From an uncultured Alphaproteobacteria bacterium (GTDB lineage Bacteria; Pseudomonadota; Alphaproteobacteria; Rs-D84; CACZYB01), in assembly GCA_934246625.1 (NCBI GenBank), contig CAKQHZ010000001.1, positions 330,001 through 362,000 on the forward strand: a stretch of DNA of 32,000 nucleotides, in the 5' to 3' direction. Positions 2,103 through 20,491 of this stretch are shown piece after piece. Every line of letters begins with the position of its first letter. The first letter of the stretch is position 1. The notes beneath the pieces are model-generated. The model made no database searches, was not told where the DNA came from, and saw only the letters and a list, made by a program, of their open reading frames with translations. A program made the position numbers and the translations under genes.

Positions 2103-2103
2103 T

Positions 2104-2874: not shown

Positions 2875-2887
2875 AATAGCTTTCTCC

Positions 2888-3829
2888 TTATAATGTTTTT
2901 AAAAATTCTGTTATTGCTTCGGTTGAACCGATTGCTTGTGATGTTGCCTTGTCTGTGCATCTTTTGATAAGTCCAGAAAGAACATTGCCAGCACCAATTT
3001 CAACAAAGCTGTCAACACCCTTTGATACCATAAAGTCTACACATTCACGGAAACGAACACCATTTACCATTTGTTCTGATAAATGAAGTTTTATATCAGC
3101 AGATTCCATATCAATATTTGCTGTGCGGTTTGAAACAAATGGAACGACTGGAGTTTTTAACATTGTTTCAGAAAGAACATGACCTATTGTTATTCTTGCA
3201 GATTCCATCAATGGACAATGTGCAGGAATTGAAACAGGCAATACAACACATTTTTTTGCACCCATTTCCTTTGCAATTACAGATGCACGTTCAATTGCGT
3301 CCTTATGTCCACTTACAACAATTTGTCCTGGGCAGTTATCATTTGCAACGGAAACTTTTGATGTTTCAGTTGATGCCTTTTCACATGCTTCAAATACATG
3401 TTCAGAATCCAAACCAATGATTGCCATCATTGCACCAAGTCCAGCAGGAACCGCTTCTGCCATTGACTTTGCACGGATTTGTAAAAGTCTTGCTCCTGTT
3501 GAAAGAGGTATTGCACCACTTGCAACCAAAGCAGAATATTCACCCAAAGAATGACCACAAACAAAATTACATAAATCTTGAATTTTTTTGCCACTTTGTG
3601 ATTCAATCACCTTTAGGGTCGCAATACTCATAGTCATAAGTGCAACTTGTGTATTTTCTGTTTTGTTTAATGCTTCGGCATCATCACCAAAAATTATATT
3701 TGTAAGTTTATATGAGAGGGCTTCATCAACTTCTTCAAAAACTTCCTTTGCTTCGATAAAGTTTTCATATAAGTCTTGACCCATTTTTAATTTTTGAGAG
3801 CCTTGTCCTGGAAATAAAAAAGCACGCAT
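2888..3829 (-). CDS. fabD: malonyl-CoA:ACP transacylase
   Basis: 313 aa with N-terminal FPGQGSQ and the active-site GHSLGEYSAL motif. It shows fabD-fabG synteny. Confidence 0.92.
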   Translation of the reverse strand: MRAFLFPGQGSQKLKMGQDLYENFIEAKEVFEEVDEALSYKLTNIIFGDDAEALNKTENTQVALMTMSIATLKVIESQSGKKIQDLCNFVCGHSLGEYSALVASGAIPLSTGARLLQIRAKSMAEAVPAGLGAMMAIIGLDSEHVFEACEKASTETSKVSVANDNCPGQIVVSGHKDAIERASVIAKEMGAKKCVVLPVSIPAHCPLMESARITIGHVLSETMLKTPVVPFVSNRTANIDMESADIKLHLSEQMVNGVRFRECVDFMVSKGVDSFVEIGAGNVLSGLIKRCTDKATSQAIGSTEAITEFLKTL

Positions 3830-3856
3830 TGTTTTTTCCTTTCGTTTTATATTAAA

Positions 3857-5122
3857 TTATAAATATTCTTTGCCATTCATATATGGACGAAGTTTTTCTG
3901 GAATTCGAACCTTTCCATCAGCTGTTTGATGATTTTCCAAAAATGGTGCAAGAATTCGAGGAGTTGCAATACCCGTGTTATTCAAAGTATAGCAATATTT
4001 TACCTTGTTTGTGCCATTTTCACGATAACGAATATTTGCACGTCTTGCTTGCCAATCTGTTAAATTTGAACAGCTGTGTGTTTCACGATATTTGTTTTGT
4101 GATGGAGTCCATGCTTCCAAATCATTCATTTTATATTTACCTAAACCCATATCACCAGTGCAACAATCAATTACCTGGTATGGAAGTTCCAAATCCTGTA
4201 AAACTTCTTCGGCTGTTGAAAGAAGGATTTCATACCATTTCTTACTTTCTGCTAAATCTGCTTTACAAATAACATATTGTTCAACCTTCATAAATTGGTG
4301 AAGACGGATAAGTCCGCGAACATCTTTTCCTGCGGAACCAGCTTCTCGTCTGAAACATGGTGAATAACCAGCATAAAGAATTGGAAGTTGAGATTCGTCA
4401 AGAATTTCATCTTTGTGAAGTGAAGTTAACACAATTTCAGCTGTGCCTGATAAATACATATTATCCTTTTCAAGATAGTATACATCTTCACGACCATCTG
4501 GGAAATGACCTGTGCCAAACAAGGCATCTTCGTTCACCATAGATGGAACTGTTATCATTGTGAAACCCTTTGCAGTTAATTTATCCATCATATACATGTG
4601 AAGTGCGATTTCCAAACGAGATGCAGCACCCTTTAATGAATAAGAACGTGAACCACAAACCTTTGCAACACGTTTGAAATCAGCCCAATTATTCATTTCA
4701 AGTAAATCATAGTGATCACGTGGTTCAAAATCAAATTTACGTGGTGTGCCAACTTTACGAATTACAACATTTTCACTGTCATCACGGCCAACAGGAACTT
4801 CGTCAGCAGGGATATTTGGCATACGCCATAACATATCTTCGTATTGTGGTTTTTTTGTTGAAAGTTCACTTTCATAAATGCTTATTTTATCAGAAAGTTC
4901 ACGTGAATTTTCAATAGCTTGTTTTTTTGCATCATCTTTAAGAGATGGAATTTGTGAAGTAATTGCGTTTTTTGCTTCTCTTAAATCTTGAAGTTTTTTA
5001 TTGATTTCAGAAATTTCTTCATCAAGTTTAAGCATTACATCAAGGTCAATATTAACATTTTTGTTTTTAATTGCCTTTTTTACAATATCTGGGTTTTCTC
5101 TTATAAATTTTATATCTAACAT
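3857..5122 (-). CDS. serS: seryl-tRNA synthetase
   Basis: 421 aa. MLDIKFIRENP start with an N-terminal coiled-coil arm. Class II core motifs are present (FRRE, GLIRLHQF, ...TLNNTGIATPR). Confidence 0.95.
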   Translation of the reverse strand: MLDIKFIRENPDIVKKAIKNKNVNIDLDVMLKLDEEISEINKKLQDLREAKNAITSQIPSLKDDAKKQAIENSRELSDKISIYESELSTKKPQYEDMLWRMPNIPADEVPVGRDDSENVVIRKVGTPRKFDFEPRDHYDLLEMNNWADFKRVAKVCGSRSYSLKGAASRLEIALHMYMMDKLTAKGFTMITVPSMVNEDALFGTGHFPDGREDVYYLEKDNMYLSGTAEIVLTSLHKDEILDESQLPILYAGYSPCFRREAGSAGKDVRGLIRLHQFMKVEQYVICKADLAESKKWYEILLSTAEEVLQDLELPYQVIDCCTGDMGLGKYKMNDLEAWTPSQNKYRETHSCSNLTDWQARRANIRYRENGTNKVKYCYTLNNTGIATPRILAPFLENHQTADGKVRIPEKLRPYMNGKEYL

Positions 5123-5182
5123 CTTTTTTACCTTTGTTGTTTAATTCTTGTAAATTATATAAAAATTATTATAAATAATCAA

Positions 5183-6628
5183 TTATGAATTTATTTCAGA
5201 TGGGTCCAACAAATTTCCGTTTACTTCCTCTGGTTCTTCTTCTAATAAATTACCATTGACTTCAACTTCGGGTTCATCTGGAACATTATGATTGATACCA
5301 AGCAAAGATTGCGAGAATAAATCAGATTGTGAATATTTCTTTTCTTGAGATTTTGCTGTAAAAGTATCAATACGATTTCCGATATTTTCATCTTGGAGTT
5401 GGTATTTTTCGGTCTTTTCCTTTAGTTTTCGTTCCTTTCGTTTTGCCTCACGTTTTTCTGCTTCTTCTATCATTTTTCTTAAACGTTTTTTGTATGCAAA
5501 AACTTTTTTTCCTTCCATAAAACGGACAATATCGTCCCAAAGTTCGATTGTGTCAGGTGTGATAAATGAAACGGCATATCCTTTTTTCCCAGCACGACCA
5601 GTTCTTCCAATACGATGGACATAGTTTTCTGGAACCTCTGGCAAATCATAATTGATAACATTATCAATATGTGAAATATCAAGTCCACGAGCAGCGACAT
5701 CGGTTGCAATCAATGCCTTTATTTTACCTGTTTTAAAATCCTCTATCGCCTTATCACGACGTTCTTGTTTATATCCACCATGGATAGATACAACAGAAAA
5801 GAATTTTGAAAGTTTTTTCTCCATCAACTCAACTGCCTTTTGAGTTCTTACAAAAATAATGCAAGTGCCTTCTCTTTGTTTTAAAAGTTTGCACATAAAG
5901 TCAAATTTCTTTTCCTTATATATTTTAACGACTTCCTGTTCAATATCAGAAGACACAGAATTTGGTTTTCCAATATTTATTTTTTCAGGCTTTCTTAAAT
6001 ATCTTTTTGCAAGTGAGATAATTTCATTTGGAAAAGTTGCAGAAAACATCAATGTTTGACGTTTATATGGAGTTGTAAATCGCAAAATAGATTTAATTTG
6101 GTCAGCAAATCCCATATCCAACATTTTATCAGTTTCATCAAGAACGACATATTTAGTTTTATAAAGTTTTAAAGTTTTTCTTTTTAAATGGTCGTTAAGT
6201 CGTCCTGGGGTTCCAATAATAAATCTTGGTCCAGTTTTTAATATTTCAATTTGTGGTTCAATTTCTGTGCCACCGATAAGTAAGGCTGTTTTTTCATTTG
6301 TTCCTTCAAGCATTTGACGAAAAACTTCATCAATTTGTTCAGCAAGTTCACGAGTAGGAGCAATCACCAAAGCATATCGATTTTTAAATTGTAATAATTT
6401 TTCAATTATAGGTATTGCAAAGGCACCTGTTTTTCCACTTCCTGTTTGTGCAGATGCAAGAACATCTTTTCCCCTTAAAATAAATGGAATTGTTTGTTTT
6501 TGCACAGGTGTTGGGTGTAAATAACCTATACGTTTTATTATCTTACACATACGAAATGACAATCCCAATGCAAGGAATGAATTTGGTTTTATTATTCCGA
6601 CGATTTTGTAAAATAATTTTTTCATCAT
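5183..6628 (-). CDS. DEAD-box ATP-dependent RNA helicase (RhlE-like) with acidic/basic C-terminal tail
   Basis: Q-motif (PTPVQKQ), Walker A AQTGSGKT, DETD in place of DEAD, SAT, and HRIGRTGRAG. The K/E-rich tail ends in a short EVNGNLL duplication. Confidence 0.9.
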   Translation of the reverse strand: MMKKLFYKIVGIIKPNSFLALGLSFRMCKIIKRIGYLHPTPVQKQTIPFILRGKDVLASAQTGSGKTGAFAIPIIEKLLQFKNRYALVIAPTRELAEQIDEVFRQMLEGTNEKTALLIGGTEIEPQIEILKTGPRFIIGTPGRLNDHLKRKTLKLYKTKYVVLDETDKMLDMGFADQIKSILRFTTPYKRQTLMFSATFPNEIISLAKRYLRKPEKINIGKPNSVSSDIEQEVVKIYKEKKFDFMCKLLKQREGTCIIFVRTQKAVELMEKKLSKFFSVVSIHGGYKQERRDKAIEDFKTGKIKALIATDVAARGLDISHIDNVINYDLPEVPENYVHRIGRTGRAGKKGYAVSFITPDTIELWDDIVRFMEGKKVFAYKKRLRKMIEEAEKREAKRKERKLKEKTEKYQLQDENIGNRIDTFTAKSQEKKYSQSDLFSQSLLGINHNVPDEPEVEVNGNLLEEEPEEVNGNLLDPSEINS

Positions 6629-6638
6629 TTAGAATTCC

Positions 6639-7898
6639 CTAATTATTCATTGTCATAAAAAATTCTTTGTTTGATTCTGTATGCTTTATTTTTTCAAGCA
6701 AGAAATCCATTGCATCGCTTGCACCCATGGAAACTAAGATACGGCGAAGAACCCACATCTTTTGCAATGTTTCTGTATCAACAAGCAATTCTTCCTTACG
6801 TGTGCCAGATTTTGTGACATCAATCGCTGGGAATGTTCTTTTATCAGAAAGTTTTCTATCAAGAACGATTTCAGAATTACCTGTGCCCTTGAATTCTTCA
6901 AAAATAACTTCGTCCATACGAGAACCTGTATCAACAAGAGCAGTTGCAATAATTGTTAAACTTCCACCCTCTTCCACATTTCGTGCGGCACCTAAAACAC
7001 GTTTTGGACGTTGAAGAGCATTAGCATCAACACCACCTGTTAAAACCTTTCCACTGCTTGGCACAACAGCATTATATGCACGACCAAGTCGAGTAATAGA
7101 ATCAAGTAAAATTACAACGTCGTGTTTATATTCAACTAAACGTTTTGCCTTTTCCATTACCATTTCAACAACTTGGACATGGCGAGTTGCAGGTTCATCA
7201 AAAGTTGAACTTATTACTTCGCCTTGGATTGAACGTTTCATATCGGTAACTTCCTCTGGACGTTCATCAATAAGCAAAACTATTAAATAAATTTCTGGGT
7301 GATTTGTTGTAATTGCATGTGCAATATTTTGAAGCATTACTGTTTTACCAGTTTTTGGTGGAGCAACAATCAAACTTCTTTGTCCCTTGCCTTGAGGAGC
7401 TACCAAATCAATAATTCGAGTTGTAAAATCTGGTTTCTTTGGATTTACAACTGGCATTTCAAAATTTAATTTTGTTTGTGGATAAAGTGGTGTTAAATCA
7501 TCAAAGTGAACACGATGTTTTGATTTTTTTGGATCTTCAAAATTGATTGTTTTTACATTATCAAGTGCAAAGTATTTTTCATTGCTTTTTGGTGCACGTA
7601 AATCCCCCTCTACTGTATCACCATTTTTAAGACTGTTCTTTTTTATCAATGCAGGTGATACATATATATCATCAGGACCAGCAAGGTAATTAGAATCTTT
7701 TGAACGAAGGAAGCCATATCCATCAGGCATAATTTCCAATACGCCCTCACCAACCAAAGTTTCCTTTAATGAAATCTTTTTTAAAATGTTAAAACGAAGA
7801 TTTTGTGTATCATAAGCAGTTGGGTTTTCGATACCTTCCTTTTCAGCTAAATCAATAAGATATGCTGGAGTTTTTTCTCTTAATTCTTTTATGTGCAT
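6639..7898 (-). CDS. rho: transcription termination factor Rho
   Basis: 419 aa with an N-terminal Rho_N ([12 protein letters not shown]), an RNA-binding CSD-like region ([14 protein letters not shown]), and P-loop APPKTGKT. It is 10 nt upstream of the helicase gene. Confidence 0.95.
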
Positions 7899-8130: not shown

Positions 8131-9114
8131 ATGAGTCCAGAAAATTTAGAATTTGTTATACTTGCTGCTGGTAAATCTACACGAAACTATCCTCACTCAA
8201 AGGGGATTCCACATAAATCATTGGTTCCATTTGGTTCAAGAAAAATTATCGACTTTATTATGAGTCAAATAATACTTGCGGGTGGAAAACATATTACTAT
8301 TGTTGTGGCTGATGATGCTGCGATTGAAGCATTTCACAACTGTTTCGTTCGTGAACCAGAAATTGAAAGCAAATTTGAAGCAAAGGGTAATTTAACAGGT
8401 CTTGAACTTCTTCAAAGTTTATATGTGCCTGATGATGTCGATATTAAATATTTTATTCAATCAAAACCTCGTGGAACTGGTCATGCTGTTGGACTTGTTT
8501 ATAATACAATCAAAGACACAGGTCGAAATATTGTTATGATTTGGCCAGATGATATTGTTTTGGCTGATAAATATGCAGAAAATCCAGAAGACAGAATCCC
8601 TGTATATAAACGTGCTGTTGATACATATATTAAAAATGGTGGCTATGGAAATCTTGGTATGACACGACCAGTTGAAGATCCTTCTCGTTGGGGTATCATT
8701 GATAATGGATACTTTAAGGAAAAGCCAAAAGAATCAGTTTCAAATCAGGCTGCATTTGGTTTGTTTATTTTTGATAAAGAAGTTTGTAAAAAACTTTATG
8801 ATTCAGCAATGAAAATGAATGAAGGTAAGGCCGTTGAAGGTATTGTCGGTGGCGAACTTGCCTTTGCTGATGCGTTAAACAAAACAATAGATGAAAATCC
8901 TGAAAAAATGAAAATTCAAACTCTTTCAATAAAACCTACTGATGTATATCTTGATTGTGGTAGTATTGAAGGATATGAAAAAGCCTTGCTATATACACTT
9001 TTAACCGAATCTAAATTTAAAGCTCAAAATGTTAAATTTATTGATTCCATACTTGCTAAAATTAAGAAAGACCTAAACAGAGAGGAAAAGGAAAAAAATG
9101 TTAACTTCAAATGA
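8131..9114 (+). CDS. divergent GalU-like sugar-1-phosphate nucleotidyltransferase, paralog 1
   Basis: The N-terminal LAAGKSTRNYPHSKGIPHKSL aligns with the GalU signature AGLGTRxLPATKAIPKEML. KPRGTGHA, WPDDIV and FKEKP are also GalU-like (GLGHA, LxDD, VEKP). Confidence 0.75.
   Translation: MSPENLEFVILAAGKSTRNYPHSKGIPHKSLVPFGSRKIIDFIMSQIILAGGKHITIVVADDAAIEAFHNCFVREPEIESKFEAKGNLTGLELLQSLYVPDDVDIKYFIQSKPRGTGHAVGLVYNTIKDTGRNIVMIWPDDIVLADKYAENPEDRIPVYKRAVDTYIKNGGYGNLGMTRPVEDPSRWGIIDNGYFKEKPKESVSNQAAFGLFIFDKEVCKKLYDSAMKMNEGKAVEGIVGGELAFADALNKTIDENPEKMKIQTLSIKPTDVYLDCGSIEGYEKALLYTLLTESKFKAQNVKFIDSILAKIKKDLNREEKEKNVNFK
8164..8219 (+). repeat. near-identical nucleotide tract shared by the two GalU-like genes (partner 9134-9189)
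   Basis: 56 nt with a single mismatch by eye: GCTGCTGGTAAATCTACACGAAA[C/T]TATCCTCACTCAAAGGGGATTCCACATAAATC. The rest of the two genes is far more diverged. Confidence 0.8.
8398..8438 (+). repeat. identical nucleotide tract shared by the two GalU-like genes (partner 9368-9408)
   Basis: 41 nt identical by eye: GGTCTTGAACTTCTTCAAAGTTTATATGTGCCTGATGATGT, encoding GLELLQSLYVPDDV. Confidence 0.8.
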
Positions 9115-10063
9115 TTTAGAATTTATTATTTTAGCTGCTGGTAAATCTACACGAAATTATCCTCACTCAAAGGGGATTCCACATAAATCTTTGATACCAC
9201 TTGGTTCAAGAAAAGTTATCGACCATATTATTCGTGAACTTATTTCTTCTGGTGCAAAGCATATTACTATTGTATGTAGTGATGAAAAGGCAAAGGAAGC
9301 ATTCGAACTTTGTTTTACAAAGGAACAAAAAATTGAAGATAAGTTCAAAAAGAATGGAAACATTATTGGTCTTGAACTTCTTCAAAGTTTATATGTGCCT
9401 GATGATGTGGAAATTAAGTATGTTATTCAAAAGGAACCTAAAGGACTTGGCCATGCAATAGGACTTGCAAACAAAGTGGCAAATGGTCGCCATCTTGTTG
9501 TGCGTGTGCCTGATGATATTGTGTTGCCAAATCATTGCTCTCCTGATAGCGAGTTAAGAAAACCTGCTGTAAGAAGATGTATTGAAAAATATCTTGCCGA
9601 TGGTGTGGGTGGTAATATGTTTATTACTCGCCATGTAAAGGACCCTTCACGTTGGGGCATTATTGAAGATGGTATATTCAAAGAAAAACCAAAAGAATCA
9701 AAATCTGATGAAGCATTCCATACTTTGGCAATACTTGATAAAAAAGTCGGTAAGCGTTTAGAAGAAGTTGCTGAAAAAATTGATACTGTTGGCACTGAAG
9801 AATATGACCTTTGGGCAAAGGAAGGTAAAGAAATTCATTTTGATAAATATCTTAATGAAGAAGTTCAAAAGGACCCTAAAAATATGGCAATAAGAACTTT
9901 CCCTATTGCAAAAACAGATACTTATCTTGATTGTGGAACTTTGCAAGGTTATGAAGAGGCTTTGCTTTACACTCTTTTAAAAGAATCTGTATTTAAGGAA
10001 AGAAATAAGGAAATTGCTCAAATACTCCTTATCGATTGCCTTTTGGAAGATGAAAATAAGTAA
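9098..10063 (+). CDS. divergent GalU-like sugar-1-phosphate nucleotidyltransferase, paralog 2
   Basis: It carries the same motifs as paralog 1 (LAAGKSTRNYPHSKGIPHKSL, KGLGHA, VPDDIV, FKEKP). It overlaps paralog 1 by 17 nt, and an RBS (GAGGAAAAGG) lies upstream of its ATG. Confidence 0.75.
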   Translation: MLTSNDLEFIILAAGKSTRNYPHSKGIPHKSLIPLGSRKVIDHIIRELISSGAKHITIVCSDEKAKEAFELCFTKEQKIEDKFKKNGNIIGLELLQSLYVPDDVEIKYVIQKEPKGLGHAIGLANKVANGRHLVVRVPDDIVLPNHCSPDSELRKPAVRRCIEKYLADGVGGNMFITRHVKDPSRWGIIEDGIFKEKPKESKSDEAFHTLAILDKKVGKRLEEVAEKIDTVGTEEYDLWAKEGKEIHFDKYLNEEVQKDPKNMAIRTFPIAKTDTYLDCGTLQGYEEALLYTLLKESVFKERNKEIAQILLIDCLLEDENK

Positions 10064-10078
10064 TTATGGAATAGTTGT

Positions 10079-10675
10079 ATGCAAAAATCTGACGATATTC
10101 AAAATTTGATAAAAGCATTGTCTAAGATTCAGGGATTTGGAAACAGATCTGCTGTGCGTGCAACTATTAACCTTATATCAAACAAGGAAGAAAAACTTGA
10201 ACCATTGATTGATGCACTAACAAATGTTGCAAACAATATCAAAACTTGCCCTTGTTGTGGAAATTTTGATACGGTTTCTCCTTGTTCTATTTGCCAAGAT
10301 GTAAAGCGTGATGGAAAAACTTTATGTATTGTATCCGATATATCTTCTTTATGGGCAATGGAACGTGGAAATATTTTTAATGGAAAATATCATATCACTG
10401 GTGGAATTTTATCTGCAATAAATGGTATTGAACCAGACGATTTGAATCTTTCAAATTTGAAAAAACGAATCGAAGACGAAGGGATTGTTGAAGTTATTCT
10501 TGCTCTTCCTGCAACCATTGATGCAAAGATTACATCTCACTATATTATCAATCTTTTAAAAGACACAAATGTAAAGATTACCGAGCTTGCACACGGAGTT
10601 CCATTGGGTGGAGAACTTGACTATTTAGATGAGGGAACTATCGGTGAAGCAATCAAGCAAAGAAAACTTATATAA
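10079..10675 (+). CDS. recR: recombination protein RecR
   Basis: 198 aa with an HhH region (GFGNRSAVRA), a C4 zinc finger CPCCGNFDTVSPCSIC, and a Toprim-like core. Confidence 0.93.
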   Translation: MQKSDDIQNLIKALSKIQGFGNRSAVRATINLISNKEEKLEPLIDALTNVANNIKTCPCCGNFDTVSPCSICQDVKRDGKTLCIVSDISSLWAMERGNIFNGKYHITGGILSAINGIEPDDLNLSNLKKRIEDEGIVEVILALPATIDAKITSHYIINLLKDTNVKITELAHGVPLGGELDYLDEGTIGEAIKQRKLI

Positions 10676-10683
10676 ATAAATTA

Positions 10684-10712
10684 TTTACAAATCTATAAAT
10701 TGATGTTAAATT
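10684..10712 (+). promoter_or_regulatory. possible sigma70-type promoter for the structured leader
   Basis: TTTACA (10684-10689), 17-nt spacer, TAAATT (10707-10712). AT-rich background makes chance matches likely. Confidence 0.25.
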
Positions 10713-10746
10713 ATTTCTAGCATTGTGAGAACTGTGCTAGGGATTA

Positions 10747-10895
10747 GAACCCCTTTCATCAATAGTTGGAAAGCTATATCTTTCCTGTCGTTTCCCCTTT
10801 GGGGAGGACGGCATTATAAGGCTATGCACGAAAGTGCCGTGCCATTTTGATGATGGTGTTCTAAACTCCCCATTAAAAATAAAAGGGAGAAAAAA
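10747..10895 (+). promoter_or_regulatory. GC-rich structured 5' leader (four-way junction plus anti-SD/SD platform), unassigned class
   Basis: By-eye fold. P1: 10747-10750 and 10756-10762 pair with 10847-10853 and 10858-10861. P2: GGAAAG 10768-10773 / CTTTCC 10780-10785. P3: 10786-10797 / 10801-10810 (UCCCC-UUU-GGGGA). P4: 10820-10843 with GCAC-GAAA-GUGC. CUCCCC 10866-10871 is complementary to both GGGGAG 10801-10806 and the SD GGGAG 10885-10889. Confidence 0.5.
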
Positions 10896-11312
10896 ATGAA
10901 CAACAAATCAAAAGTCTTTTTAATATCTACAATTCTTTGTGGAGTATTATCTTTAAAAGCAAATTCTTCTACATTAAATGATATTTTATCAAAATATTGT
11001 GTGCCAACTGTTGGCAACTGCGATAAAAAAGCAACCTATAACACCTCTGGCAATTATTGTGATTGTGGAAATAAAGACAAATTTTACAACTTATCAACTC
11101 GAATTTGTGAAAATTGTATCTTTGGTTCCTTTGCAAGTGATAATTACAAAACTTGTGAACCTATAAGATGCCCAACAGGGTATGTCGCCACACTTATAAT
11201 TGATGGGAAATGTCCTTATGGGTATAGGTTAACTCAAATCTATACACCAAATACCTTTTGGAATGGAACTGAACTTAAAACATATAATTTTTCAAAAAAA
11301 ACATTTAACTAA
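10896..11312 (+). CDS. small secreted cysteine-rich protein (signal peptide, CxxC-type repeat)
   Basis: 138 aa. N-terminal signal-like MNNKSKVFLISTILCGVLSLKANS. Nine Cys in the mature part, including a CENCIFGSFASDNYKTCEP...CPTGY pattern. Strong SD GGGAGA lies 6 nt upstream. Confidence 0.7.
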   Translation: MNNKSKVFLISTILCGVLSLKANSSTLNDILSKYCVPTVGNCDKKATYNTSGNYCDCGNKDKFYNLSTRICENCIFGSFASDNYKTCEPIRCPTGYVATLIIDGKCPYGYRLTQIYTPNTFWNGTELKTYNFSKKTFN

Positions 11313-11321
11313 ATAAAGTTT

Positions 11322-11423
11322 GGGGTTGAAGTTTTTTCGTCCATGGTCTTCACTTCAACCTCTCCCGAATTGCTGTTTTATGAGGGAAGACAGCAAAGTA
11401 TAACCCCCTCAAAGGAGAAAAAT
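11322..11423 (+). promoter_or_regulatory. structured intergenic leader/attenuator upstream of second Cys-rich gene
   Basis: 11-bp stem 11322-11332 / 11352-11362 with a 19-nt loop. Hairpin TTGCTGT 11370-11376 / ACAGCAA 11390-11396 presents GAGGGA (11382-11387) in its loop. C-tracts UCUCCC 11361-11366 and CCCCCUC 11404-11410 are complementary to that G-tract; UCUCC is also complementary to the SD GGAGA (11414-11418). Confidence 0.4.
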
Positions 11424-12254
11424 ATGAAGATAATGAATAAACTTAATATTGCAATACTTGGGATTAGTGGAGTGATTTCCAATCCTGTTTTTGCACAAAA
11501 ATTTTATCAATGCTTACCAATAAAATGTTCTGATGGTCAATATTTAGATGGAAGTAATTGTAAAAGTTGCCCAAAGGGATTTGAATGCAAAAATAATCAA
11601 AAAACCGCTTGTAGAAGTGGATTTTATGCAAACAAAGAAGGTATGGCAAATTGCAAATCTTGTAATGGTTTTTCATCAAATGCAAATGCCCAATATTGTT
11701 TTGGTAAAAAAGAATTTGCCCTTGGAACTTATACACTTACAATTCCTGCTGGCAAATGGAAAGCAACTATTCGTGGGGGCTATCCATGGTATGTGGATAT
11801 GTTAGGTAATTATGGACATAAAGTTAGTTCTGGATTTGGTGCAACGTTAGTAAAATACTTTACCTTAGAACAAGAAGAACAAATCAAAATTATCGTTGGT
11901 AAAAAAACTTGTGGAGGTGGCGGAAAATATTCTTCAAATGGTGAAGATTCAAGTATAGAACTTTTAACAAAATCAGGTGGTGGAGTTTCTGGTATTACAA
12001 GGGTAAATAAACTTATCGCTGGTGGTGGAAAAGTTAACCCTAAAGAAGAGGATTTATCAAAACTTAATGGTCAATGCGAATATTCTGGATTATCACTTAA
12101 TTCCTCAATAGGGGAAAAATGTTATCATGAAGTTTCAAATTCAAATGAAGTTTTTGATGAAATAATAAAACAAAAGTTAGGTTATAGCACTAGGTTAGGC
12201 GATGGTGGCTGTGGTGTGTTTGATGGAAAAGTCGTTTTGGAACTTATAAACTAA
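11424..12254 (+). CDS. secreted protein: ephrin-receptor/TNFR-like CxxC repeats plus glycine-rich (ALK GlyR-like) domain
   Basis: I prefer the ATG at 11424 (SD AAAGGAG upstream) because it yields the signal peptide MKIMNKLNIAILGISGVISNPVFAQ. The track's start at 11343 would translate the structured leader. Repeats: CKSCPKGFEC...CRSGFYANKEGMANCKSC. C-terminal region: GATLVKYFTLEQEEQIKIIVGKK..GGGG..LIAGGGK..GGCGVFDGKVVLELI. Confidence 0.75.
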   Translation: MKIMNKLNIAILGISGVISNPVFAQKFYQCLPIKCSDGQYLDGSNCKSCPKGFECKNNQKTACRSGFYANKEGMANCKSCNGFSSNANAQYCFGKKEFALGTYTLTIPAGKWKATIRGGYPWYVDMLGNYGHKVSSGFGATLVKYFTLEQEEQIKIIVGKKTCGGGGKYSSNGEDSSIELLTKSGGGVSGITRVNKLIAGGGKVNPKEEDLSKLNGQCEYSGLSLNSSIGEKCYHEVSNSNEVFDEIIKQKLGYSTRLGDGGCGVFDGKVVLELIN

Positions 12255-12259
12255 TAATT

Positions 12260-12287
12260 AAAAACCCCTCTTTCGAGGGGCTTTTTT

Positions 12288-12289
<2 letters not shown>
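12260..12289. terminator. bidirectional Rho-independent terminator (Cys-rich gene / mreB)
   Basis: CCCCTC-TTTC-GAGGGG (12265-12280), flanked by an A-run upstream and T8 downstream. It lies between convergent genes. Confidence 0.75.
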
Positions 12290-13361
<1,072 letters not shown>

Positions 13362-13427
13362 TTATATATTAAAATAATCCTTTGAAAACTACAAGGAAAA
13401 AATATCATAATATGAAAGATTTTTACA

Positions 13428-14702
13428 CTATTTATATATTATTAAGTCCGCATTGCTTAAAATTATAAATTTATCCTCTATGACTATAGGGGTTGTGTCA
13501 ATTATAGATGTAAGTTTTTGGGTTCCTAACTTTTTACCATTATATGGACTTAACTTTATAATTTCGCCATTTGAAAATGTAAGGATAAGTTGGTTATTGA
13601 TAAGCAATGGGTCAAATGGTATTGCCTTTTTATCTTCTGGTTCAACCTTTTTAGACCAAATTATTTTTCCTGTTTTAACATTTATTGCATTAACAATATT
13701 GTCATTTGAAATATCAAACATAAACTTGTTTGACAATGCAGGTGTTGTTATTCCACCAATGGAAAGTTCCCAGTTAAGGACGCCTGTGTCAATATCAAAT
13801 GCCTTCATAATATTATTATAACTTTTTACAACAACAACTTCACCATCAGTAATTGGATTTGCAACTATATCTGAAATATTATTGATATTTTTTGTATTTA
13901 TTTTTGTTAATGCTTCAAGCCAAATTGGGGTATTCATATCACGCATTAGCATATGGACTTCACCATTTGGAAATGCAACAACAATATTGTTATCAATACA
14001 CATTGGTAAAGACCCCTTTACAAAGGAATTTGCTTCTTCCATTGTTTTATGTGTGAAAACTTTGTCGCCAGTTTTTGCATCAATTACAAAAAATTCGCCC
14101 ATATCATTTGAAAAGTAAAGTTTATCACCACAAATTTGAAGACCTGATTTCAAAGTGGTGTTGAAATAGTTGCTGTAAATAATTTCACCATTTTTAATAT
14201 TCATTGCAACAAGTTGTGCTGTATTTGTGATTGCATAAAGTCTTTCATTATCAAGAGCCAATGCTCCATAACGAAGGTATTCATTATTTGTAAGACGAGG
14301 ACTTTGCCATAAAGTTTTTCCTGTTAAAAGAGATGTTGCTTGAACCTTTAATTTTCCATCAATGGTAAATACAGTTGTGGAATTTGCAACTGGAGTATAA
14401 AGAATTTGTGCATTACTTGTTTTTACACCAATATCATTTCGTGCAAACTTTGTGAACTTTTTTTTGCCCGCAATATGACCGATTGTATTATAGGAATTTC
14501 CAGAAGATGAAGTCCAAGATTTATTTAAGACTGGACGTTTCAAAATGATTTTATCATCTGAAAATTCGTCTTCTTGCTCCTCCTTATCAAAAATAGAAAC
14601 TCGTTCACCACTAAGTGGAACCTTTGTTGTTTCACAGCCTGTAAATACAAAGGCAAGGATTAGAATATAAAAAATATTTCTTAAACGGTTAAAGTTAAAC
14701 AT
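13428..14702 (-). CDS. bamB: outer-membrane assembly lipoprotein BamB-like (PQQ-type beta-propeller)
   Basis: Lipobox LAFVFTGC at the N-terminus. Repetitive beta-propeller-like blades (..A.N..TG...W...). It sits directly downstream of a YfgM-like gene, as in yfgM-bamB synteny. Confidence 0.7.
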   Translation of the reverse strand: MFNFNRLRNIFYILILAFVFTGCETTKVPLSGERVSIFDKEEQEDEFSDDKIILKRPVLNKSWTSSSGNSYNTIGHIAGKKKFTKFARNDIGVKTSNAQILYTPVANSTTVFTIDGKLKVQATSLLTGKTLWQSPRLTNNEYLRYGALALDNERLYAITNTAQLVAMNIKNGEIIYSNYFNTTLKSGLQICGDKLYFSNDMGEFFVIDAKTGDKVFTHKTMEEANSFVKGSLPMCIDNNIVVAFPNGEVHMLMRDMNTPIWLEALTKINTKNINNISDIVANPITDGEVVVVKSYNNIMKAFDIDTGVLNWELSIGGITTPALSNKFMFDISNDNIVNAINVKTGKIIWSKKVEPEDKKAIPFDPLLINNQLILTFSNGEIIKLSPYNGKKLGTQKLTSIIDTTPIVIEDKFIILSNADLIIYK

Positions 14703-15454: not shown

Positions 15455-16189
15455 TTATTCTTTGTCTTGATATAATGAATTGATTACTTTCTTTTGAAGT
15501 TGGATAAGTTCTACTATACCAGTTCTTGCAAATGAAAGAAGTTTTAAAAATTCATTTTCGGTAAATGGAACCTTTTCTGCAGTTCCTTGAATTTCAACAA
15601 TTCCACCGCTTCCTGTCATAACAAAATTTGAATCGGTATCAGCATTGCTGTCTTCTTCAAAATCCAAATCCATCATAGGTTGTCCGTTCACAATACCGCA
15701 TGAAATAGCAGCAACATAATCATTTATTGGAAGTTCATCAAGTTTATATCTGTATTTTAATTTTTGCATTGCTTGATAAAGGGCGATAAAGCCTCCTGTG
15801 ATAGAAGCTGTTCTTGTGCCACCATCTGCTTGAAGCACATCACAATCAACAATTATTTGACGTTCACCCATTTTATCCAAATCAACAACTGAACGAAGAG
15901 AACGACCTATCAATCTTTGAATTTCAAGTGAACGACCACTTTGACGACCCTTATTAACTTCTCTTTCAATACGTGTTTGGCAAGATGCTGGAAGCATTGC
16001 ATATTCTGCGGTTACCCAACCTGTGCCAGAGTGTTTTAAAAACACAGGAACCTTATTTTCAATTGTTGCAGTGCAAAGAACACGTGTATCACCAAATGAT
16101 ACAAGACAAGAACCATCAGCATACTTATTTACACCTGCAAGAAGTTCTATTTTTCTTAAAGATTCATTTTTTCTTGAAAGAGCTCTCAT
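15455..16189 (-). CDS. rph: ribonuclease PH
   Basis: 244 aa with ADGSCLVSFGDTRVLC, GRSLEIQRLIGRSLR and CDVLQADGGTRTASITG. Confidence 0.93.
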   Translation of the reverse strand: MRALSRKNESLRKIELLAGVNKYADGSCLVSFGDTRVLCTATIENKVPVFLKHSGTGWVTAEYAMLPASCQTRIEREVNKGRQSGRSLEIQRLIGRSLRSVVDLDKMGERQIIVDCDVLQADGGTRTASITGGFIALYQAMQKLKYRYKLDELPINDYVAAISCGIVNGQPMMDLDFEEDSNADTDSNFVMTGSGGIVEIQGTAEKVPFTENEFLKLLSFARTGIVELIQLQKKVINSLYQDKE

Positions 16190-16260
16190 TTTTTATCCTT
16201 GAATTATAATTTATTTTAGGTATTATATATTTATATATAATTTTTTTTTAAAAGGCAAGT

Positions 16261-16512
16261 ATGAAACAAAATCTTATGAATTCTTTGATGATTTTATCAG
16301 AAGCGGTCGATGAATTAAACCGCGTTTTTTCTTTGTATCAAAATGTGAAAAGAGAAGAATCTAATATAAAATCTGATGACTTTCATGCAATTCAAATGCA
16401 AATGCAATCTGAAATTGATAAGTTAAAACAAAACCTTATGTTTGAACAAGATAAAATTGTTCGTGCAAAGGACGAAATTAGAGCTTTATCAACTGAGCTT
16501 AGAAATTTATAA
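16261..16512 (+). CDS. small coiled-coil protein, ZauP/ZapB-like (ZapA-associated)
   Basis: 83 aa, heptad-rich. It sits immediately upstream of zapA, as the DUF4164/ZauP genes do in alphaproteobacteria. The call is positional and compositional only. Confidence 0.4.
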   Translation: MKQNLMNSLMILSEAVDELNRVFSLYQNVKREESNIKSDDFHAIQMQMQSEIDKLKQNLMFEQDKIVRAKDEIRALSTELRNL

Positions 16513-16536
16513 TATATAAAGGAGAGAATTAAATAA

Positions 16537-16887
16537 ATGACTACACTTAATTTTACAATAAATAATAAAAATTATTCTGTGGATTGTGGTGCTGGTCAAG
16601 AAAATCAAATCCTTTCTATTGTAAATATGATTGATGAAAAAGCAAAAACTCTTGCTAAAATGTTTGGTGAAGTTGACAGCGAAACTCTTCTTTTGATGGT
16701 TTGCATTCTTGTTTTTGGCGAATTTGAAAAGGCAAAAGCAAAACTTGCTAACCTTGAAGGCGATATTAAAAAACTTAATGAAAACAATGTCGATATGGAA
16801 AAAATCAATTCCTTTATTATTGATATGGCAAAAAAAATCAAGACATTGTCTTCTTCAATTCAAAATGAAACTACTTCTAATATATAA
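16537..16887 (+). CDS. zapA: cell division protein ZapA
   Basis: 116 aa. The N-terminal beta domain (LNFTINNKNYSVDCGAGQE...) followed by a coiled coil is typical ZapA architecture. SD GGAGAG lies upstream. Confidence 0.7.
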   Translation: MTTLNFTINNKNYSVDCGAGQENQILSIVNMIDEKAKTLAKMFGEVDSETLLLMVCILVFGEFEKAKAKLANLEGDIKKLNENNVDMEKINSFIIDMAKKIKTLSSSIQNETTSNI

Positions 16888-16912
16888 GTAAATTTTTAGG
16901 GAGCAAAAAATT

Positions 16913-17980
16913 ATGGCTAAAAAAGAAAATAGTCTTAAAAATAAAAAAACAACAAATGATGAAAAAAGCAAAAGCAATAATCACAATTCTTCTTTTTCTG
17001 TGTTTCAGGTTATAATTTTTGCTTTTCTTTTTGTGCTTATGATTTGGATAATCGGTTTTCTTTCTTTGGAAATTGATAGTCAAAAACAAGAAATTAAAAA
17101 AATTCACAGCGAAATAGATTTACGAAAAAAGGATAGTGAAGAAATTTTCAAATACTATGTCGATAAAATTCGTGATTTCCAAAAAATTGATATAAAGGAC
17201 CAAGTGCAATCTTTTGGTAAAGACATAAAAGATGGCTTACAAGAAGTTCGCGAGCTTATGTTTGATAAGGAAGATTTGGCAAAAGTTAATGCAAAAATTT
17301 CTGCTTTGGAAGAATATAACAATACATATCGTGGAACAAATCTTGTATTCCTTACATCTGTGGGACTTCTTCGTGATGTAATAAACAGAGGTCAAAGTTT
17401 TGAAGTTGAACTTAATACATTAGAAATCGTTGGTGGAAGACAAAAGTTGGTTATCAATGCCATAGAAACTTTGAAACCTTTATCAAAAACAGGTGTTAAA
17501 ACTTTCTCTCAACTTAAAACTCAATTTGATGAAATGGCTGGCGATGTTGTGTTTATTTCAAATAATCCTATTAGCGAAAATCCAACATATAAACAAAGAT
17601 TTTGGCACAGAATTAAGTCCTTGTTCAAAATAAGAAAAATTGATTTGACTGATACTAGTGAAAGTGCTGACTTGATTGTTGCAAGAACAGAAAATTATTT
17701 AAAAGATAACAAACTTGATGAAGCAGTTAAGGAAATTGAAAAGTTAAAGGAAATTGCACCAGCGGGATTTGAATATATCAAATCTTGGTATCTTGATGCA
17801 AAAAATAAAATTGATGTTGATAATATTATGAGTGAGGTTTCTTCTTTTGCAATAGAACGTGCCCTAAATGATATTTATCAAGGCCACCCAAAACTTAAAA
17901 AACAAGAAAAGGCAATCAAAACACTTACAAAAAGTGCAGAAACAATAACTTCATCAAAAGATGTTGAAATAAAGGAATAA
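16913..17980 (+). CDS. Mic60 (mitofilin)/HemX-like membrane-anchored coiled-coil protein
   Basis: It has an N-terminal K-rich tail, one TM (VIIFAFLFVLMIWIIGFLSL) and a long coiled coil. The C-terminal block ADLIVARTENYLKDNKLDEAVKEIEKLKE...WYLDAKNKIDVDNI resembles the mitofilin-domain pattern. A HemY_N gene follows it. Confidence 0.55.
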   Translation: MAKKENSLKNKKTTNDEKSKSNNHNSSFSVFQVIIFAFLFVLMIWIIGFLSLEIDSQKQEIKKIHSEIDLRKKDSEEIFKYYVDKIRDFQKIDIKDQVQSFGKDIKDGLQEVRELMFDKEDLAKVNAKISALEEYNNTYRGTNLVFLTSVGLLRDVINRGQSFEVELNTLEIVGGRQKLVINAIETLKPLSKTGVKTFSQLKTQFDEMAGDVVFISNNPISENPTYKQRFWHRIKSLFKIRKIDLTDTSESADLIVARTENYLKDNKLDEAVKEIEKLKEIAPAGFEYIKSWYLDAKNKIDVDNIMSEVSSFAIERALNDIYQGHPKLKKQEKAIKTLTKSAETITSSKDVEIKE

Positions 17981-17982
17981 AA

Positions 17983-18273
17983 ATGTTAAAACAAACGTTA
18001 AAATTATTTTTTATCTTACTTGGCTTTTCTGTAATTGCCGTATGGATTTCAAATAATTATGGAACTGTGGATATTTTTTGGTTAGGATATTCAATACATA
18101 CATCTGTTCCAGTATTGCTTTTTGTAATGTGGATTTTGTTTGTGCTTGTTGATAAAATTATGTGGTTTTTAAGTTTTATTACAAAACCTTTACGTAAAAG
18201 AAAAGATAAAAAAACAACAAAAAAAGATGTTATGAAGGTTGAGTATTCAAATTCGAATACCACTTCAAAATAA
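17983..18273 (+). CDS. HemY N-terminal-domain-only membrane protein (no TPR part)
   Basis: 96 aa. The pattern TM1, GTVDIFWLGYSIHTSVPVLLFV, TM2, basic tail parallels E. coli HemY residues 1-90 (GYVLIQTDNYNIETSVTGLAII..). The stop lies 5 nt before tRNA-Ser. Confidence 0.6.
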   Translation: MLKQTLKLFFILLGFSVIAVWISNNYGTVDIFWLGYSIHTSVPVLLFVMWILFVLVDKIMWFLSFITKPLRKRKDKKTTKKDVMKVEYSNSNTTSK

Positions 18274-18278
18274 AAATT

Positions 18279-18366
18279 GGAAAGATGGCAGAGTGGTCGA
18301 TTGCACACGCTTGGAAAGCGTGCATACCGCAAGGTATCGGGGGTTCGAATCCCCCTCTTTCCGCCA
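18279..18366 (+). tRNA. tRNA-Ser (anticodon GGA), CCA encoded
   Basis: Acceptor GGAAAGA/TCTTTCC. Anticodon stem CACGC/GCGTG with loop TTGGAAA. Long variable arm ATACC-GCAA-GGTAT. T-arm GGGGG-TTCGAAT-CCCCC. G73 then CCA. Confidence 0.93.
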
Positions 18367-18378
18367 AAAGATATATTC

Positions 18379-19413
18379 TTATTCTTCAGATTTAATTTGT
18401 CGGTCGATACCAAGGTGTTTGTATGCCTTATCTTGAACTATACGACCACGTGGAGTGCGTTGTAAAAATCCAATTTGCAAAAGATATGGCTCTATTACAT
18501 CTTCGATTGTATCAACCTCCTCAGATAAAAGTGCAGATATTGTTTCAATTCCAACTGGACCACCGCCATAATTATCAATCAAAAGTTTTAAATATCGGCG
18601 GTCAAGATTATCAAGCCCGAAATCATCAACTGAAAGTTTTTGAAGCGAGATTTTTGCCTCTGGCTCATCAATAATTTTTTTATTATCAACGACTGCAAAA
18701 TCACGAACTCTTTTCAAAAGTCTATTTGCAATACGCGGAGTTCCACGAGAACGCTTTGCAATAGCTCTTGCACCATCATCTGATAAAGATATATCCAAAA
18801 TATGCCCTACTCGCTTTACAATATCAGCCAAATCATCTTCAGTATAAAATTCAAATGCAAGTGGAATACCAAATCTTTCCCTTAATGGAGTAGAAAGCAA
18901 TCCTGTCCTTGTTGTAGCACCAATCAATGTAAATGGTGGTATATCAATTCTTACTGTTCGGGCAGCAGGTCCTTCTCCTATAATTAAATCAAGTTTAAAA
19001 TCCTCCATTGCGGAATATAAAACTTCCTCAACCGAAGGTGAAAGTCTGTGGATTTCATCAATAAAAAGAACATCATTTGGTTGCAAATTTGTAAGGATTG
19101 CCGCCAAATCACCAACCTTTGAAATCATAGGTGCAGATGTTGCACGAAATCCAACTCCAAGCTCTATTGCAATTATGTTTGCAAGTGTTGTTTTACCAAG
19201 CCCAGGTGGACCATAAAGAAGACAATGGTCAAGTGCAATTTTCCTGTTTTTCGCAGATTGTATAAAAACCTTAAGATTTTCCTTTAACCCACGTTGTCCA
19301 ACAAAATCATCAAGACAAAGCGGTCTTACACTTTCGATTTTAGAGGTAATATCTTCGATATTTTCCTTTGCATCAATTATTCTTTTTTCTGTATCCATTA
19401 TGACTCCTATCAA
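18379..19413 (-). CDS. ruvB: Holliday junction branch migration ATPase RuvB
   Basis: 344 aa with [11 protein letters not shown], Walker [10 protein letters not shown], Walker [10 protein letters not shown], and a winged-helix C-terminus. Confidence 0.95.
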
Positions 19414-19490
19414 ATGTAAAGTATAATAGAGTTTATGAAATATTACAAGTAAGAAAAGATATAAAAAAAGGAGCCTTAAGCCCCTTTTCC

Positions 19491-20237
19491 TTATTGGTCA
19501 TTTGCAATTAAGTTTTGCATAATTCGCATTGTATCTTCTGGACCCTTTACTGAAAATATTGTTCCACCAAGGTTGACAATTTTGTGTGCAATAGCATTAT
19601 CGTTTCCAGTTCTGTAAATCCTATCACCAAAATATGAAATATCATAATCCTTATAATAATCTGCGACTTGAGCTTTATCACAACCTTTTTTTACAATATC
19701 AACTGAAATTTGACCACCCAAAGTCATATTGTATTCTGGATATTTTTCCTCAAGATATTTAATAATCCATTGTCTTTGACCATTGCGTTTGTCCCATTCT
19801 ACATATTCTTCTCTATCTTCGTGTGAAGGTTCACCAATTTCTGGACGACCAAGCATTGTAAAGTTAATTGCACAATTATTGTTTATTTCGTGATGACGTG
19901 GAAATGATTTATGGAACTTCACAGGACAATTTTCAATGATATGATCTAAAACGTCCTTGAACATATTAAAGTCTATTGTATTATGAGAGTTATAAACTTC
20001 TTTACCTTTTTTATAAAGGGCATTTCCCATACAACACCAAAAATCAACATTATCACTTTCAAGAAGTTCTGTTGGCATTTGTTCCATCATATCTTTATAA
20101 GGAGAGCCTGTTACAACAGCAAAATGGAAATGTTTTGAAAATTCAATTAAAGTTTCAGCCATTTCACCAACTATTTTCTTTCTTGCAACTGTTAATGTTC
20201 CATCATTATCTGATAAAAAAACTTTGTTATTATTCAT
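19491..20237 (-). CDS. eukaryotic-type phosphomannomutase (PMM family HAD phosphatase-like mutase)
   Basis: 248 aa. [17 protein letters not shown] parallels human PMM2 [29 protein letters not shown] parallels VVGGSDFEKVQEQ. C-terminal [15 protein letters not shown]...GPEDT parallels FFGDKTMPGGNDHEI...APEDT. Confidence 0.75.
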
Positions 20238-20420
20238 ATAAAACCTCTTTGTTAAAATTAAAAATGTGGGTATTATATCCTAGTTGAAAAAAATATCTAG
20301 TAAAAATTTCAATTATATTATATAAATCTAACCCCTTAATATTTCGGGAAAAAATCAATGATTTTATAAAATATTTTGCTTTTAAAGTATAGATAAAACT
20401 TCTTCTTTTACTATTGAAAG

Positions 20421-20452
20421 AAAAAAATAAAAAACCGCCCCCAACGGGACGG
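20421..20452 (-). terminator. Rho-independent terminator of the lipoprotein gene
   Basis: The minus strand reads CCGTCCC-GTTG-GGGGCGG (7 bp including one G-U), followed by TTTTTTATTTTTTT. The stem is good only on the minus strand. Confidence 0.7.
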
Positions 20453-20491
20453 ATTTTATGACTCAGAATAATGGGAGGTGTATAGACAGGA

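Follow-up and report, generated by a model that had tools for sequence, protein, structure and literature searches.

A recurrent two-gene cassette with exchangeable heads, predicted to encode exported cysteine-rich proteins, in an uncultured gut alphaproteobacterium

The window analysed here, a stretch of 32,000 nt of contig CAKQHZ010000001.1 (assembly GCA_934246625.1, positions 330,001 to 362,000 of the forward strand) from an uncultured alphaproteobacterium, carries two small genes, A and B, on the + strand between recR and the convergent mreB. Both code for cysteine-rich proteins that are predicted to be exported by the Sec pathway. Cassettes of this type recur at unrelated genomic sites, the C-terminal head of B is replaced as a unit between strains of one species, and much of the divergence between close strains is concentrated in three loops of the head. 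On balance, the locus probably encodes an exported recognition or adhesion module that varies from strain to strain. The two genes and the parts of their products are as follows.

10896..11312, + strand: gene A, an open reading frame (ORF) for a 138-aa Cys-rich protein, the conserved partner in the cassette
10896-10961, + strand: putative signal peptide of gene A, residues 1-22, read from the sequence
11424..12254, + strand: gene B, 276 aa from the corrected start
11424..11495, + strand: putative signal peptide of gene B, residues 1-24, MKIMNKLNIAILGISGVISNPVFA; this leader is conserved throughout the B family and anchors the head swaps on their 5' side
11496..11699, + strand: stalk of gene B, residues 25-92 with 9 Cys; QKFYQC motif and CxxC modules of the ephrin-receptor-like/TNFR-like kind
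11700..12254, + strand: head of gene B, residues 93-276 and stop codon; modelled in the fold of Gly_rich_2 and the ALK-LTK glycine-rich domain (GRD), a TNF-like beta-sandwich whose glycine-rich loops are reduced here

The original prediction described a pair of secreted, eukaryote-like Cys-rich proteins. Both ORFs are present, as are the motifs that it quoted, namely CKSCPKGFEC, CRSGFYANKEGMANCKSC and GATLVKYFTLEQEEQIKIIVGKK...GGGG...LIAGGGK...GGCGVFDGKVVLELI in B and CENCIFGSFASDNYKTC and RCPTGY in A. The dense Cys spacing is equally real: Cys accounts for 7.2 % of A and 4.7 % of B, compared with 1.35 % across the window's remaining 28 ORFs, and reaches about 13 % in the stalk of B, while the mature part of A contains nine Cys and one C-x2-C-x2-G-S-[FY] module. 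The mechanical maximum ORF of gene B starts at 11343 and comprises 303 aa. However, as far as can be judged from the sequence, the true start is almost certainly the ATG at 11424, since an AAAGGAG ribosome-binding site lies 8 nt upstream of it, the same start is called in four other assemblies and the leader that follows, MKIMNKLNIAI.GISGVISNPVFA↓QKFYQC (the arrow marking the predicted cleavage), is conserved. That A and B are real genes follows from their conservation in relatives, which for A amounts to 99-100 % in sister strains, and from ratios of nonsynonymous to synonymous substitution rates (dN/dS) of 0.13 for A and 0.24 for the scaffold of B. Near-identical contigs are present in publicly available metagenome assemblies, and human gut samples (Hadza) contain related cassettes.

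The B family is defined by its N-terminus. A profile search returns about 50 proteins of 175-250 aa with a B-type leader. What they have in common is limited to the signal peptide, the A-x-A↓Q-x-F-Y-Q-C motif and the CxxC modules; at least seven classes can be distinguished among the C-terminal parts that follow. The proposal that all of these heads are divergent glycine-rich domains was rejected, the hhalign probability between classes being at most 2 %. Head replacement can be observed directly when the window is compared with related loci (designated L). In L017, from another strain of the same species, the sequences corresponding to 9379-11513 and 12260-13900 are 98.6 % and 99.6 % identical to the window, respectively, and the segment between them is replaced by 616 unrelated nt (L017 2136-2751) that encode a different head. 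A second such replacement is seen at the rpsD locus (L001 8097-8742 versus L007 185-751). The replaceable segment and the variable loops within it are located as follows.

11514..12259, + strand: replaceable segment, all of B beyond codon 30 (...FYQCLP) as far as the terminator, by comparison with L017
11784..11837, + strand: hypervariable loop 1, PWYVDMLGNYGHKVSSGF, where canonical relatives have their first poly-Gly run (alignment A3); DNA identity 76-79 %, with indels
11913..11936, + strand: hypervariable loop 2, GGGGKYSS
12123..12209, + strand: hypervariable loop 3, YHEVSNSNEVFDEIIKQKLGYSTRLGDGG, the sole divergence hotspot in B versus the closest strain

When the window is compared with L004, the three loop segments retain 75-80 % DNA identity with insertions and deletions (indels), versus a background of 98-100 %, and the dN of B is about 20 times that of its neighbours. 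Pooled dN/dS reaches 2.05 in 45 loop codons versus 0.24 in the other 221 codons, a figure that comes from one strain pair with indels present. Over the larger distance to the syntenic locus L015, A and B are 38-41 % identical and their neighbours 75-87 %. The combination of head swaps and positively selected loops points to these segments as the likely specificity-determining parts, which makes the proteins candidate factors of colonisation, immune evasion or inter-microbial recognition. As to the source of the variation, a diversity-generating retroelement (DGR), considered on account of a gene with an Mtd_N domain beside the cassette in L008, was rejected: a template repeat is lacking, and the changes are rich in indels and show no adenine specificity. 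No repeat of the variable segments and no annotated reverse transcriptase are found in the window, DGR components are likewise absent from the L008 sequence examined, and no silent-cassette donor was seen in the sequence examined.

At no fewer than nine unrelated genomic sites, a B-type gene is immediately preceded by an A-type gene. A homologues of 50-99 % identity hold this position wherever that flank is contained in the sequence, and with identities of 38-99 % they do so beside many different neighbours. The sites include the following.

L001: neighbours DsbA and rpsD
L002: neighbour priA
L003: two A-B cassettes in tandem
L008: neighbour the Mtd_N gene; a few kb further downstream lie phage capsid genes
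L013: neighbours MltA and gyrB
L014: neighbour RNase E/G
L004, L005, L006, L015 and L017: recR loci

The ends of several contigs coincide with A or B, a pattern that multi-copy repeats would produce. Relatives of B are very few among the 5.8 billion and 1.84 billion proteins searched: five full-length homologues of 46-97 % identity were found, and two more distant proteins, P0058 and P0059, match the whole B profile (E about 1e-26, positions 33-240). The gene order at the P0058/P0059 locus, rho-galU-galU-recR, is that of the window, and the RecR of this relative is 82 % identical. A scan of genome contigs yielded one metagenome-assembled genome, labelled 'uncultured Bacteroidales' (a doubtful name, probably a submitter label), and a scan of metagenome contigs with A yielded one locus, so that phylogenetic breadth is poorly sampled. 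The tandem cassettes in L003, which carries this doubtful Bacteroidales label, occupy 3779-7384, where one of the B heads gives a weak full-length match to ALK_LTK_GRD (E=0.12); a 471-aa Cys-containing ORF lies upstream of them (1973-3388). In L015 the sequence upstream of both B genes is duplicated (3214-4000 and 5408-5607), and the translations share ...CGCDPK...KKEKRKM.

Signal peptides were called by a sequence heuristic that considers basic residues, hydrophobic core, the residues at -1/-3 and a lipobox. The N-termini of A and B each possess two K/R within the first eight residues, a 10-residue hydrophobic core with a Kyte-Doolittle value of 2.5-2.6 and small residues at -1/-3 (LKA↓N in A, VFA↓Q in B), and neither carries a lipobox. 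These features, which agree with the Sec signal peptides claimed for both ORFs, are of the kind processed by type I signal peptidase, and members of the B family retain the A-x-A↓Q site. Together with the high Cys content and a DsbA-like gene beside one of the cassettes, they suggest that A and B are exported by Sec. A periplasmic or envelope location, with a housekeeping or stress role such as envelope structure or, as decoy or shield, protection from phages or host factors, and not the binding of external targets, would agree with N-termini in which only a Sec signal, and no lipobox, autotransporter or sorting signal, can be read. It would also suit the cell-wall genes that often adjoin the cassettes (mreB here, mreC/PBP2/rodA or MltA elsewhere) and the leader RNA (see below) in front of a small lipoprotein gene. 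However, the genomic neighbours vary from site to site and thus provide an inconsistent context, and strong diversification with head replacement is unexpected for an internal housekeeping protein. We consider this explanation unlikely. A cluster of secretin, TcpQ, PilO, T2SSE and T2SSF genes lies about 2.7 kb from a B gene in L007 (3446-10754); it could be an outer-membrane export route or a coincidence.

A conserved N-terminus followed by unrelated, swappable C-termini at fixed loci is also the hallmark of polymorphic toxins, and B proteins could be conceived as Sec-exported toxins or bacteriocins in which a conserved delivery part carries interchangeable killing domains. The locus has in common with polymorphic systems such as contact-dependent inhibition (CDI), Rhs and MafB toxins, variable pilins and surface antigens the sharp boundary after a conserved N-terminal segment, the unrelated C-terminal modules at one locus and the presence of several copies in the genome, at which the assemblies tend to break. 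It differs from them in that B proteins are small, carry a Sec signal and are preceded by an invariant partner gene, and in that the swapped segment contains no immunity gene. Indeed, this segment stops at the end of B, with no co-varying immunity gene and with the terminator and mreB directly behind it in the 99.6 % identical flank. Moreover, the only linked gene, A, is conserved while the heads change and is itself predicted to be exported, the window head is modelled with a binding-domain fold and no known toxin fold, and none of the searches run gave a PADLOC or toxin Pfam match. A toxin function thus seems improbable.

The nature of the stalk and the head emerges mostly from relatives of the window protein. 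With Pfam gathering cut-offs of 23.1 bits for Ephrin_rec_like (PF07699), 24.3 for Gly_rich_2 (PF21722) and 24.5 for ALK_LTK_GRD (PF12810), neither window protein scores above cut-off with any Pfam or NCBIfam model. On Ephrin_rec_like, window B reaches 12.7 bits (E=0.11), whereas the cut-off is passed by P0058 (92.3 bits, E=1.6e-26), P0059 (44.9 bits, E=1e-11), P0064 (36.7 bits) and P0023 (26.8 bits). The CxxC modules of the window align onto those of the relatives that pass (alignment A3), and the B family profile matches the Ephrin_rec_like repeats of the Chlamydomonas mastigoneme protein Mst1 with E=1.6e-8. The ephrin-receptor/TNFR-type repeats that had been proposed for both proteins are therefore supported in B by way of its relatives and Mst1. 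They are not supported by window B on its own, nor in gene A, for which no significant family was detected in Pfam, NCBIfam or PDB sequences, the A-family profile giving an empty result against PDB as well. B shares the C-x2-C-P-x-G-[TSF]-[YF] modules of the Ephrin_rec_like, GCC2_GCC3 and TNFR repeats (PF07699, PF23091, PF00020), for which Mst1, the Eph receptors and the CxxC coats of the Giardia variant-specific surface protein (VSP) style serve as comparators. In contrast to these systems, window B has only one or two degenerate modules that stay under the Pfam cut-off, is bacterial and is fused to a Gly_rich_2 head or, elsewhere in the family, to other unrelated heads.

As for the head, window B gives no match to Gly_rich_2 even at E<=10. 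P0002, which is 82 % identical, scores 15.5 bits, and the cut-off is passed by P0004 (25.3 bits), P0058 (36.6 bits, E=6e-9) and P0059 (44.8 bits, E=2e-11); a search with HMMER, suggested as a check in the original prediction, thus leaves the window proteins below cut-off and places relatives of B above it for both Ephrin_rec_like and Gly_rich_2. No sequence match to ALK/LTK or PF12810 was obtained in Pfam or PDB for B or for the family profiles A1 and A3, the best PF12810 case being the long-Gly head of a relative (L003 B2) with 12.8 bits. PHROGs yields weak minor-tail matches for P0059 alone. The structural comparison is more telling. A first AlphaFold2 (AF2) model based on six sequences has a mean predicted local distance difference test score (pLDDT) of 52.6; an improved model of mature B, from eight sequences after addition of P0058 and P0059, reaches a pLDDT of 71.3 and a predicted template modelling score (pTM) of 0.70, with loops below 50. 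Both give the same top Foldseek matches. For the improved model, PDB ranks 1-20 are all GRD/TG domains of ALK/LTK, with probabilities of 0.96-1.0, E-values from 3e-3 to 3e-2 and TM-scores as low as 0.25-0.34. Thus, the ALK-type glycine-rich domain that had been proposed holds for the fold, and for the family through Gly_rich_2, and fails for ALK and PF12810 by sequence.

The ALK motif given in the original prediction matches human ALK chains in the PDB exactly, and the strand motif GATLVKYFTLEQEEQIKIIVGKKTC of B parallels it. The ligand-binding region of ALK/LTK (PF12810; PDB 7NX1, 7LS0, 7N00, 7LRZ) is the best solved structural neighbour of B, with which it shares the pattern G-x-x-[LV]-x-x-x-F-x-L-E-x-x-[DE]-x-[IL]-x-I-[IL]-V-G followed by Cys, as well as short GGG(G) runs in the same order. 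However, B is bacterial, is presumably exported by Sec, lacks a transmembrane or kinase part and any significant PF12810 sequence match and has far fewer glycines, and nothing points to a cytokine ligand. The window head contains 16.8 % Gly with three runs of three to four residues, as compared with 21-30 % and runs of up to seven in relatives (27-30 %, also with runs of up to seven, in the L003 paralogues), and displays non-glycine variable loops where relatives have runs of the GGAGGGG type. A polyglycine-II lattice would have only these three short runs to build on in the window head, and the loops are modelled at a pLDDT below 50.

Phage proteins provide a second set of neighbours. In a viral structure library, 53 proteins match at E<=1e-3, comprising "glycine-rich domain-containing" phage proteins, mycobacteriophage minor tail proteins and giant-virus proteins. 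The tail fibre gp24 of cyanophage Pam3 combines a TNF-like with a glycine-rich part and is similar to ALK of C. elegans; in the authors' proposal, it is the hypervariable distal tip, borne on a conserved glycine stem, that recognises the host receptor (PMC9608196). B resembles Pam3 gp24 in combining a conserved scaffold with hypervariable loops (PMC9608196), and further comparators are the mycobacteriophage minor tail proteins and, for the glycine-rich part, gp38 of Salmonella phage S16. Unlike these tips, B does not belong to a virion; a signal peptide and a Cys-rich stalk take the place of a fibre shaft, there is neither a trimerisation helix nor a chaperone gene, and the glycine stem is reduced. 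The fold of the head is common to bacteria, phages and eukaryotes and is not specifically eukaryotic; bacteria and phages have at least as good a claim to the glycine-rich head as eukaryotes do.

These relationships bear on the epithet "eukaryote-like", which fits the stalk repeats, the part usually treated as eukaryotic, and does not fit the head, whose nearest sequence relatives are bacterial and phage Gly_rich_2 proteins, nor the composition, which is native. In its strongest form, the idea would be that the pair was recently acquired from a eukaryote, be it the host or a gut protist, and mimics Eph/ALK ectodomains, sequestering host ligands such as ALKAL or ephrins. The Ephrin_rec_like domain is indeed held to be of eukaryotic origin, its rare bacterial occurrences being put down to transfer (PMC6993872), and the solved structural neighbours and the strand motif GATLVKYFTLEQEEQIKIIVGKKTC lead to ALK/LTK. 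On the other hand, A (0.30) and B (0.33) have the GC content of the genome (0.32), members of the family occupy conserved loci across a bacterial clade, the head belongs with Gly_rich_2 and not with ALK_LTK_GRD (12.8 versus 24.5 bits for the best relative), the fold is abundant in phages, and no eukaryotic protein is found among the 25 matches in 1.84 billion representatives. Composition is native, the locus is ancestral in the clade and there is no sign of recent transfer; such an origin is very unlikely. Hardly credible is the view that the head is a decaying prophage tail-fibre remnant and the pair devoid of current function: similarity to phage minor tail and fibre proteins, the Mtd_N and capsid genes near one cassette and the shortage of glycine runs in the window allele would fit it, but the frames are intact in all strains, dN/dS is low (0.24 in the scaffold, 0.13 in A), signal peptides are incompatible with cytoplasmic virion assembly, and both regulation and cassette structure are conserved. 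The Mtd_N gene itself, named for the N-terminal domain of the Bordetella phage tropism determinant, occupies L008 7684-8814 on the - strand and adjoins the A-B cassette; phage capsid and nozzle genes are found at 16167-20597 of the same contig.

In the reading that we favour, that of a variable recognition or adhesion module, an uncultured gut alphaproteobacterium of low GC content would use A and B as a two-gene cassette for disulfide-rich proteins that leave the cytoplasm by the Sec pathway. B is modular, with a conserved signal peptide and QxFYQC motif, a short CxxC stalk of the ephrin-receptor-like type and a C-terminal head; after Sec export and disulfide formation, it would present the binding head on a rigid Cys-rich stalk and act outside the cytoplasm as a secreted or surface-associated recognition or adhesion module. 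Specificity would reside in the variable loops of the head, which correspond to the glycine loops and the tip in phage fibres and ALK. A would serve as a common partner, whether anchor, adaptor or folding helper, and stay constant while the heads change. Selection for novelty may act by two routes, amino-acid change in the three loops and replacement of the whole head through recombination with the conserved leader and the downstream flank as its end points. Diversifying or frequency-dependent selection, exerted by host immunity, phages or changing targets, would then keep many heads in circulation.

Several observations weigh against this reading. Window B itself fails the domain searches that its relatives pass. 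The AF2 model is of moderate quality, its loops fall below a pLDDT of 50, and its TM-scores to ALK are low. The runs needed for a polyglycine lattice are largely lost, so that the head may work differently from the ALK and phage proteins. The loop dN/dS above 1 is drawn from 45 codons of a single comparison with indels, and recombination could inflate the apparent substitution rates. In addition, no dedicated route across the outer membrane was identified, and a Sec signal in a Gram-negative bacterium leads only as far as the periplasm. Secretion, an A-B complex and ligand binding are steps that we infer.

Upstream of gene A lies a structured 5' leader RNA. The 220-nt gap in front of A is richer in GC, and the segment 10715-10880 folds with a minimum free energy (MFE) of -63 kcal/mol (z=-6.2). 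The leader is identical in sister strains. It belongs to no family in Rfam 15, where at gathering score the window holds three tRNAs only and the best sub-threshold match of the leader is JA03 (24.8 bits versus 44). In other lineages, the regions upstream of A genes contain a long-range helix of TTGGGGAG with CTCCCC that likewise encloses two hairpins. Across nine loci, a hand-drawn structure is paired in 82.6 % of cells, as compared with 72.3 % after shuffling (0/500 shuffles as good) and 41-48 % when slid, and 19 of its 29 pairs show compensatory changes. With a covariance model, the window copy scores 51 bits (E=4e-11), and 16 strong copies of 47-112 bits are found in 148 kb. In 15 of these 16 cases the copy lies in sense orientation just upstream of an exported-protein gene, be it an A gene, the gene of a further CxxC protein (143 aa) or that of a lipoprotein of 46 aa. 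The remaining copy lies behind recR in L015 and is succeeded by about 790 nt without an intact A, which suggests rearrangement or decay in this slot. The leader, further copies of it and the other RNA elements of the locus are positioned as follows.

10782..10876 (wider 10715-10895), + strand: structured 5' leader RNA, with a long-range helix of about 10801-10808 with about 10866-10873 that encloses two hairpins
L008 15754-15858, - strand: further leader copy, by covariance model
L015 8559-8664, - strand: further leader copy, by covariance model
L015 3101-3213, + strand: further leader copy, by covariance model
11322..11362, + strand: intergenic hairpin between A and B, read from the sequence; 11-bp stem GGGGTTGAAGT / ACTTCAACCTC, 19-nt loop, no T-run
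12265..12289, + strand: intrinsic terminator, CCCCTCTTTCGAGGGG followed by a T-run; bidirectional and common to the convergent mreB

Alternative pairings are possible among the segments S1 (10787-10797), S2 (10798-10812), S3 (10862-10874) and the Shine-Dalgarno sequence GGGAG (10884-10888). The three pairings are mutually exclusive and each beats all 200 shuffles, which suggests a translational switch: judging from complementarity, the pairings could hide or free the ribosome-binding site. The leader probably controls expression of the cassette, and would do so by way of these exclusive pairings. As a covarying RNA, it is a candidate for a new cis-regulator of envelope and exported proteins. 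The hairpin at 11322-11362, which is not among the terminators found by terminator prediction, could be a processing or attenuation site. More tentatively, the pieces can be assembled into one undescribed head-swapping recognition system of uncultured gut alphaproteobacteria: A together with modular B, whose eukaryote-type stalk of the ephrin-receptor-like kind would hold out interchangeable heads, the ALK/phage-tail-fibre fold among them, the heads being directed at host, protist or microbial targets and diversified by hypermutation-like selection in the loops as well as by recombination at the signal-peptide boundary, the whole switched by a new riboswitch-like leader that is shared with other exported-protein genes. 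We regard this fuller version as possible but doubtful.

The individual domains are known, and Pfam already lists Gly_rich_2 in bacteria and phages. In the literature, nothing was found on Gly_rich_2/PF21722, nor any description of a Sec-exported bacterial architecture that joins Ephrin_rec_like to a TNF-like/glycine-rich domain and comes with a partner gene, nor of a multi-copy cassette with head swaps at the signal-peptide boundary, selected loops and a leader RNA. The architecture of B places the fold of the ALK/LTK ligand-binding region in a cellular bacterial context, outside phage virions and fused to a repeat that is usually eukaryotic, and bears on the origin of the unusual ALK ectodomain. 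It also brings to light a strain-variable, multi-copy family of putatively exported proteins in a gut alphaproteobacterial lineage about which there is almost no functional knowledge.

Apart from A and B, the window (about 32 % GC) is housekeeping in content, in agreement with the earlier description of the surroundings. It comprises the following genes.

serS, fabD/G, rho, a DEAD helicase gene, two GalU-like genes, recR and mreB
a bamB-like gene, rph, zapA, ruvB, dnaJ, olsB, sodB, miaB and a Mic60/mitofilin homologue

The two GalU-like nucleotidyltransferase genes (8131-9114 and 9098-10063) are tandem, overlapping paralogues that are kept in relatives, with 76-81 % DNA identity across about 335 nt (repeat families D1 and D2). 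The gene of the Mic60/mitofilin family, an alphaproteobacterial marker, is located at 16913-17980 and is followed by a HemY_N gene in related contigs. The Mic60/HemY pair and OlsB indicate an alphaproteobacterial source, with an order such as RF32 as a tentative assignment. Outside gene B, the sole divergence hotspot versus L004 and L005 is found at about 18167-18316, beside tRNA-Ser(GGA) (18279-18366), where identity drops to about 57 % with some 60 gap columns, as compared with 98-99 % in the remaining sequence. An indel, or a scar left by integration at the tRNA, may lie behind it.

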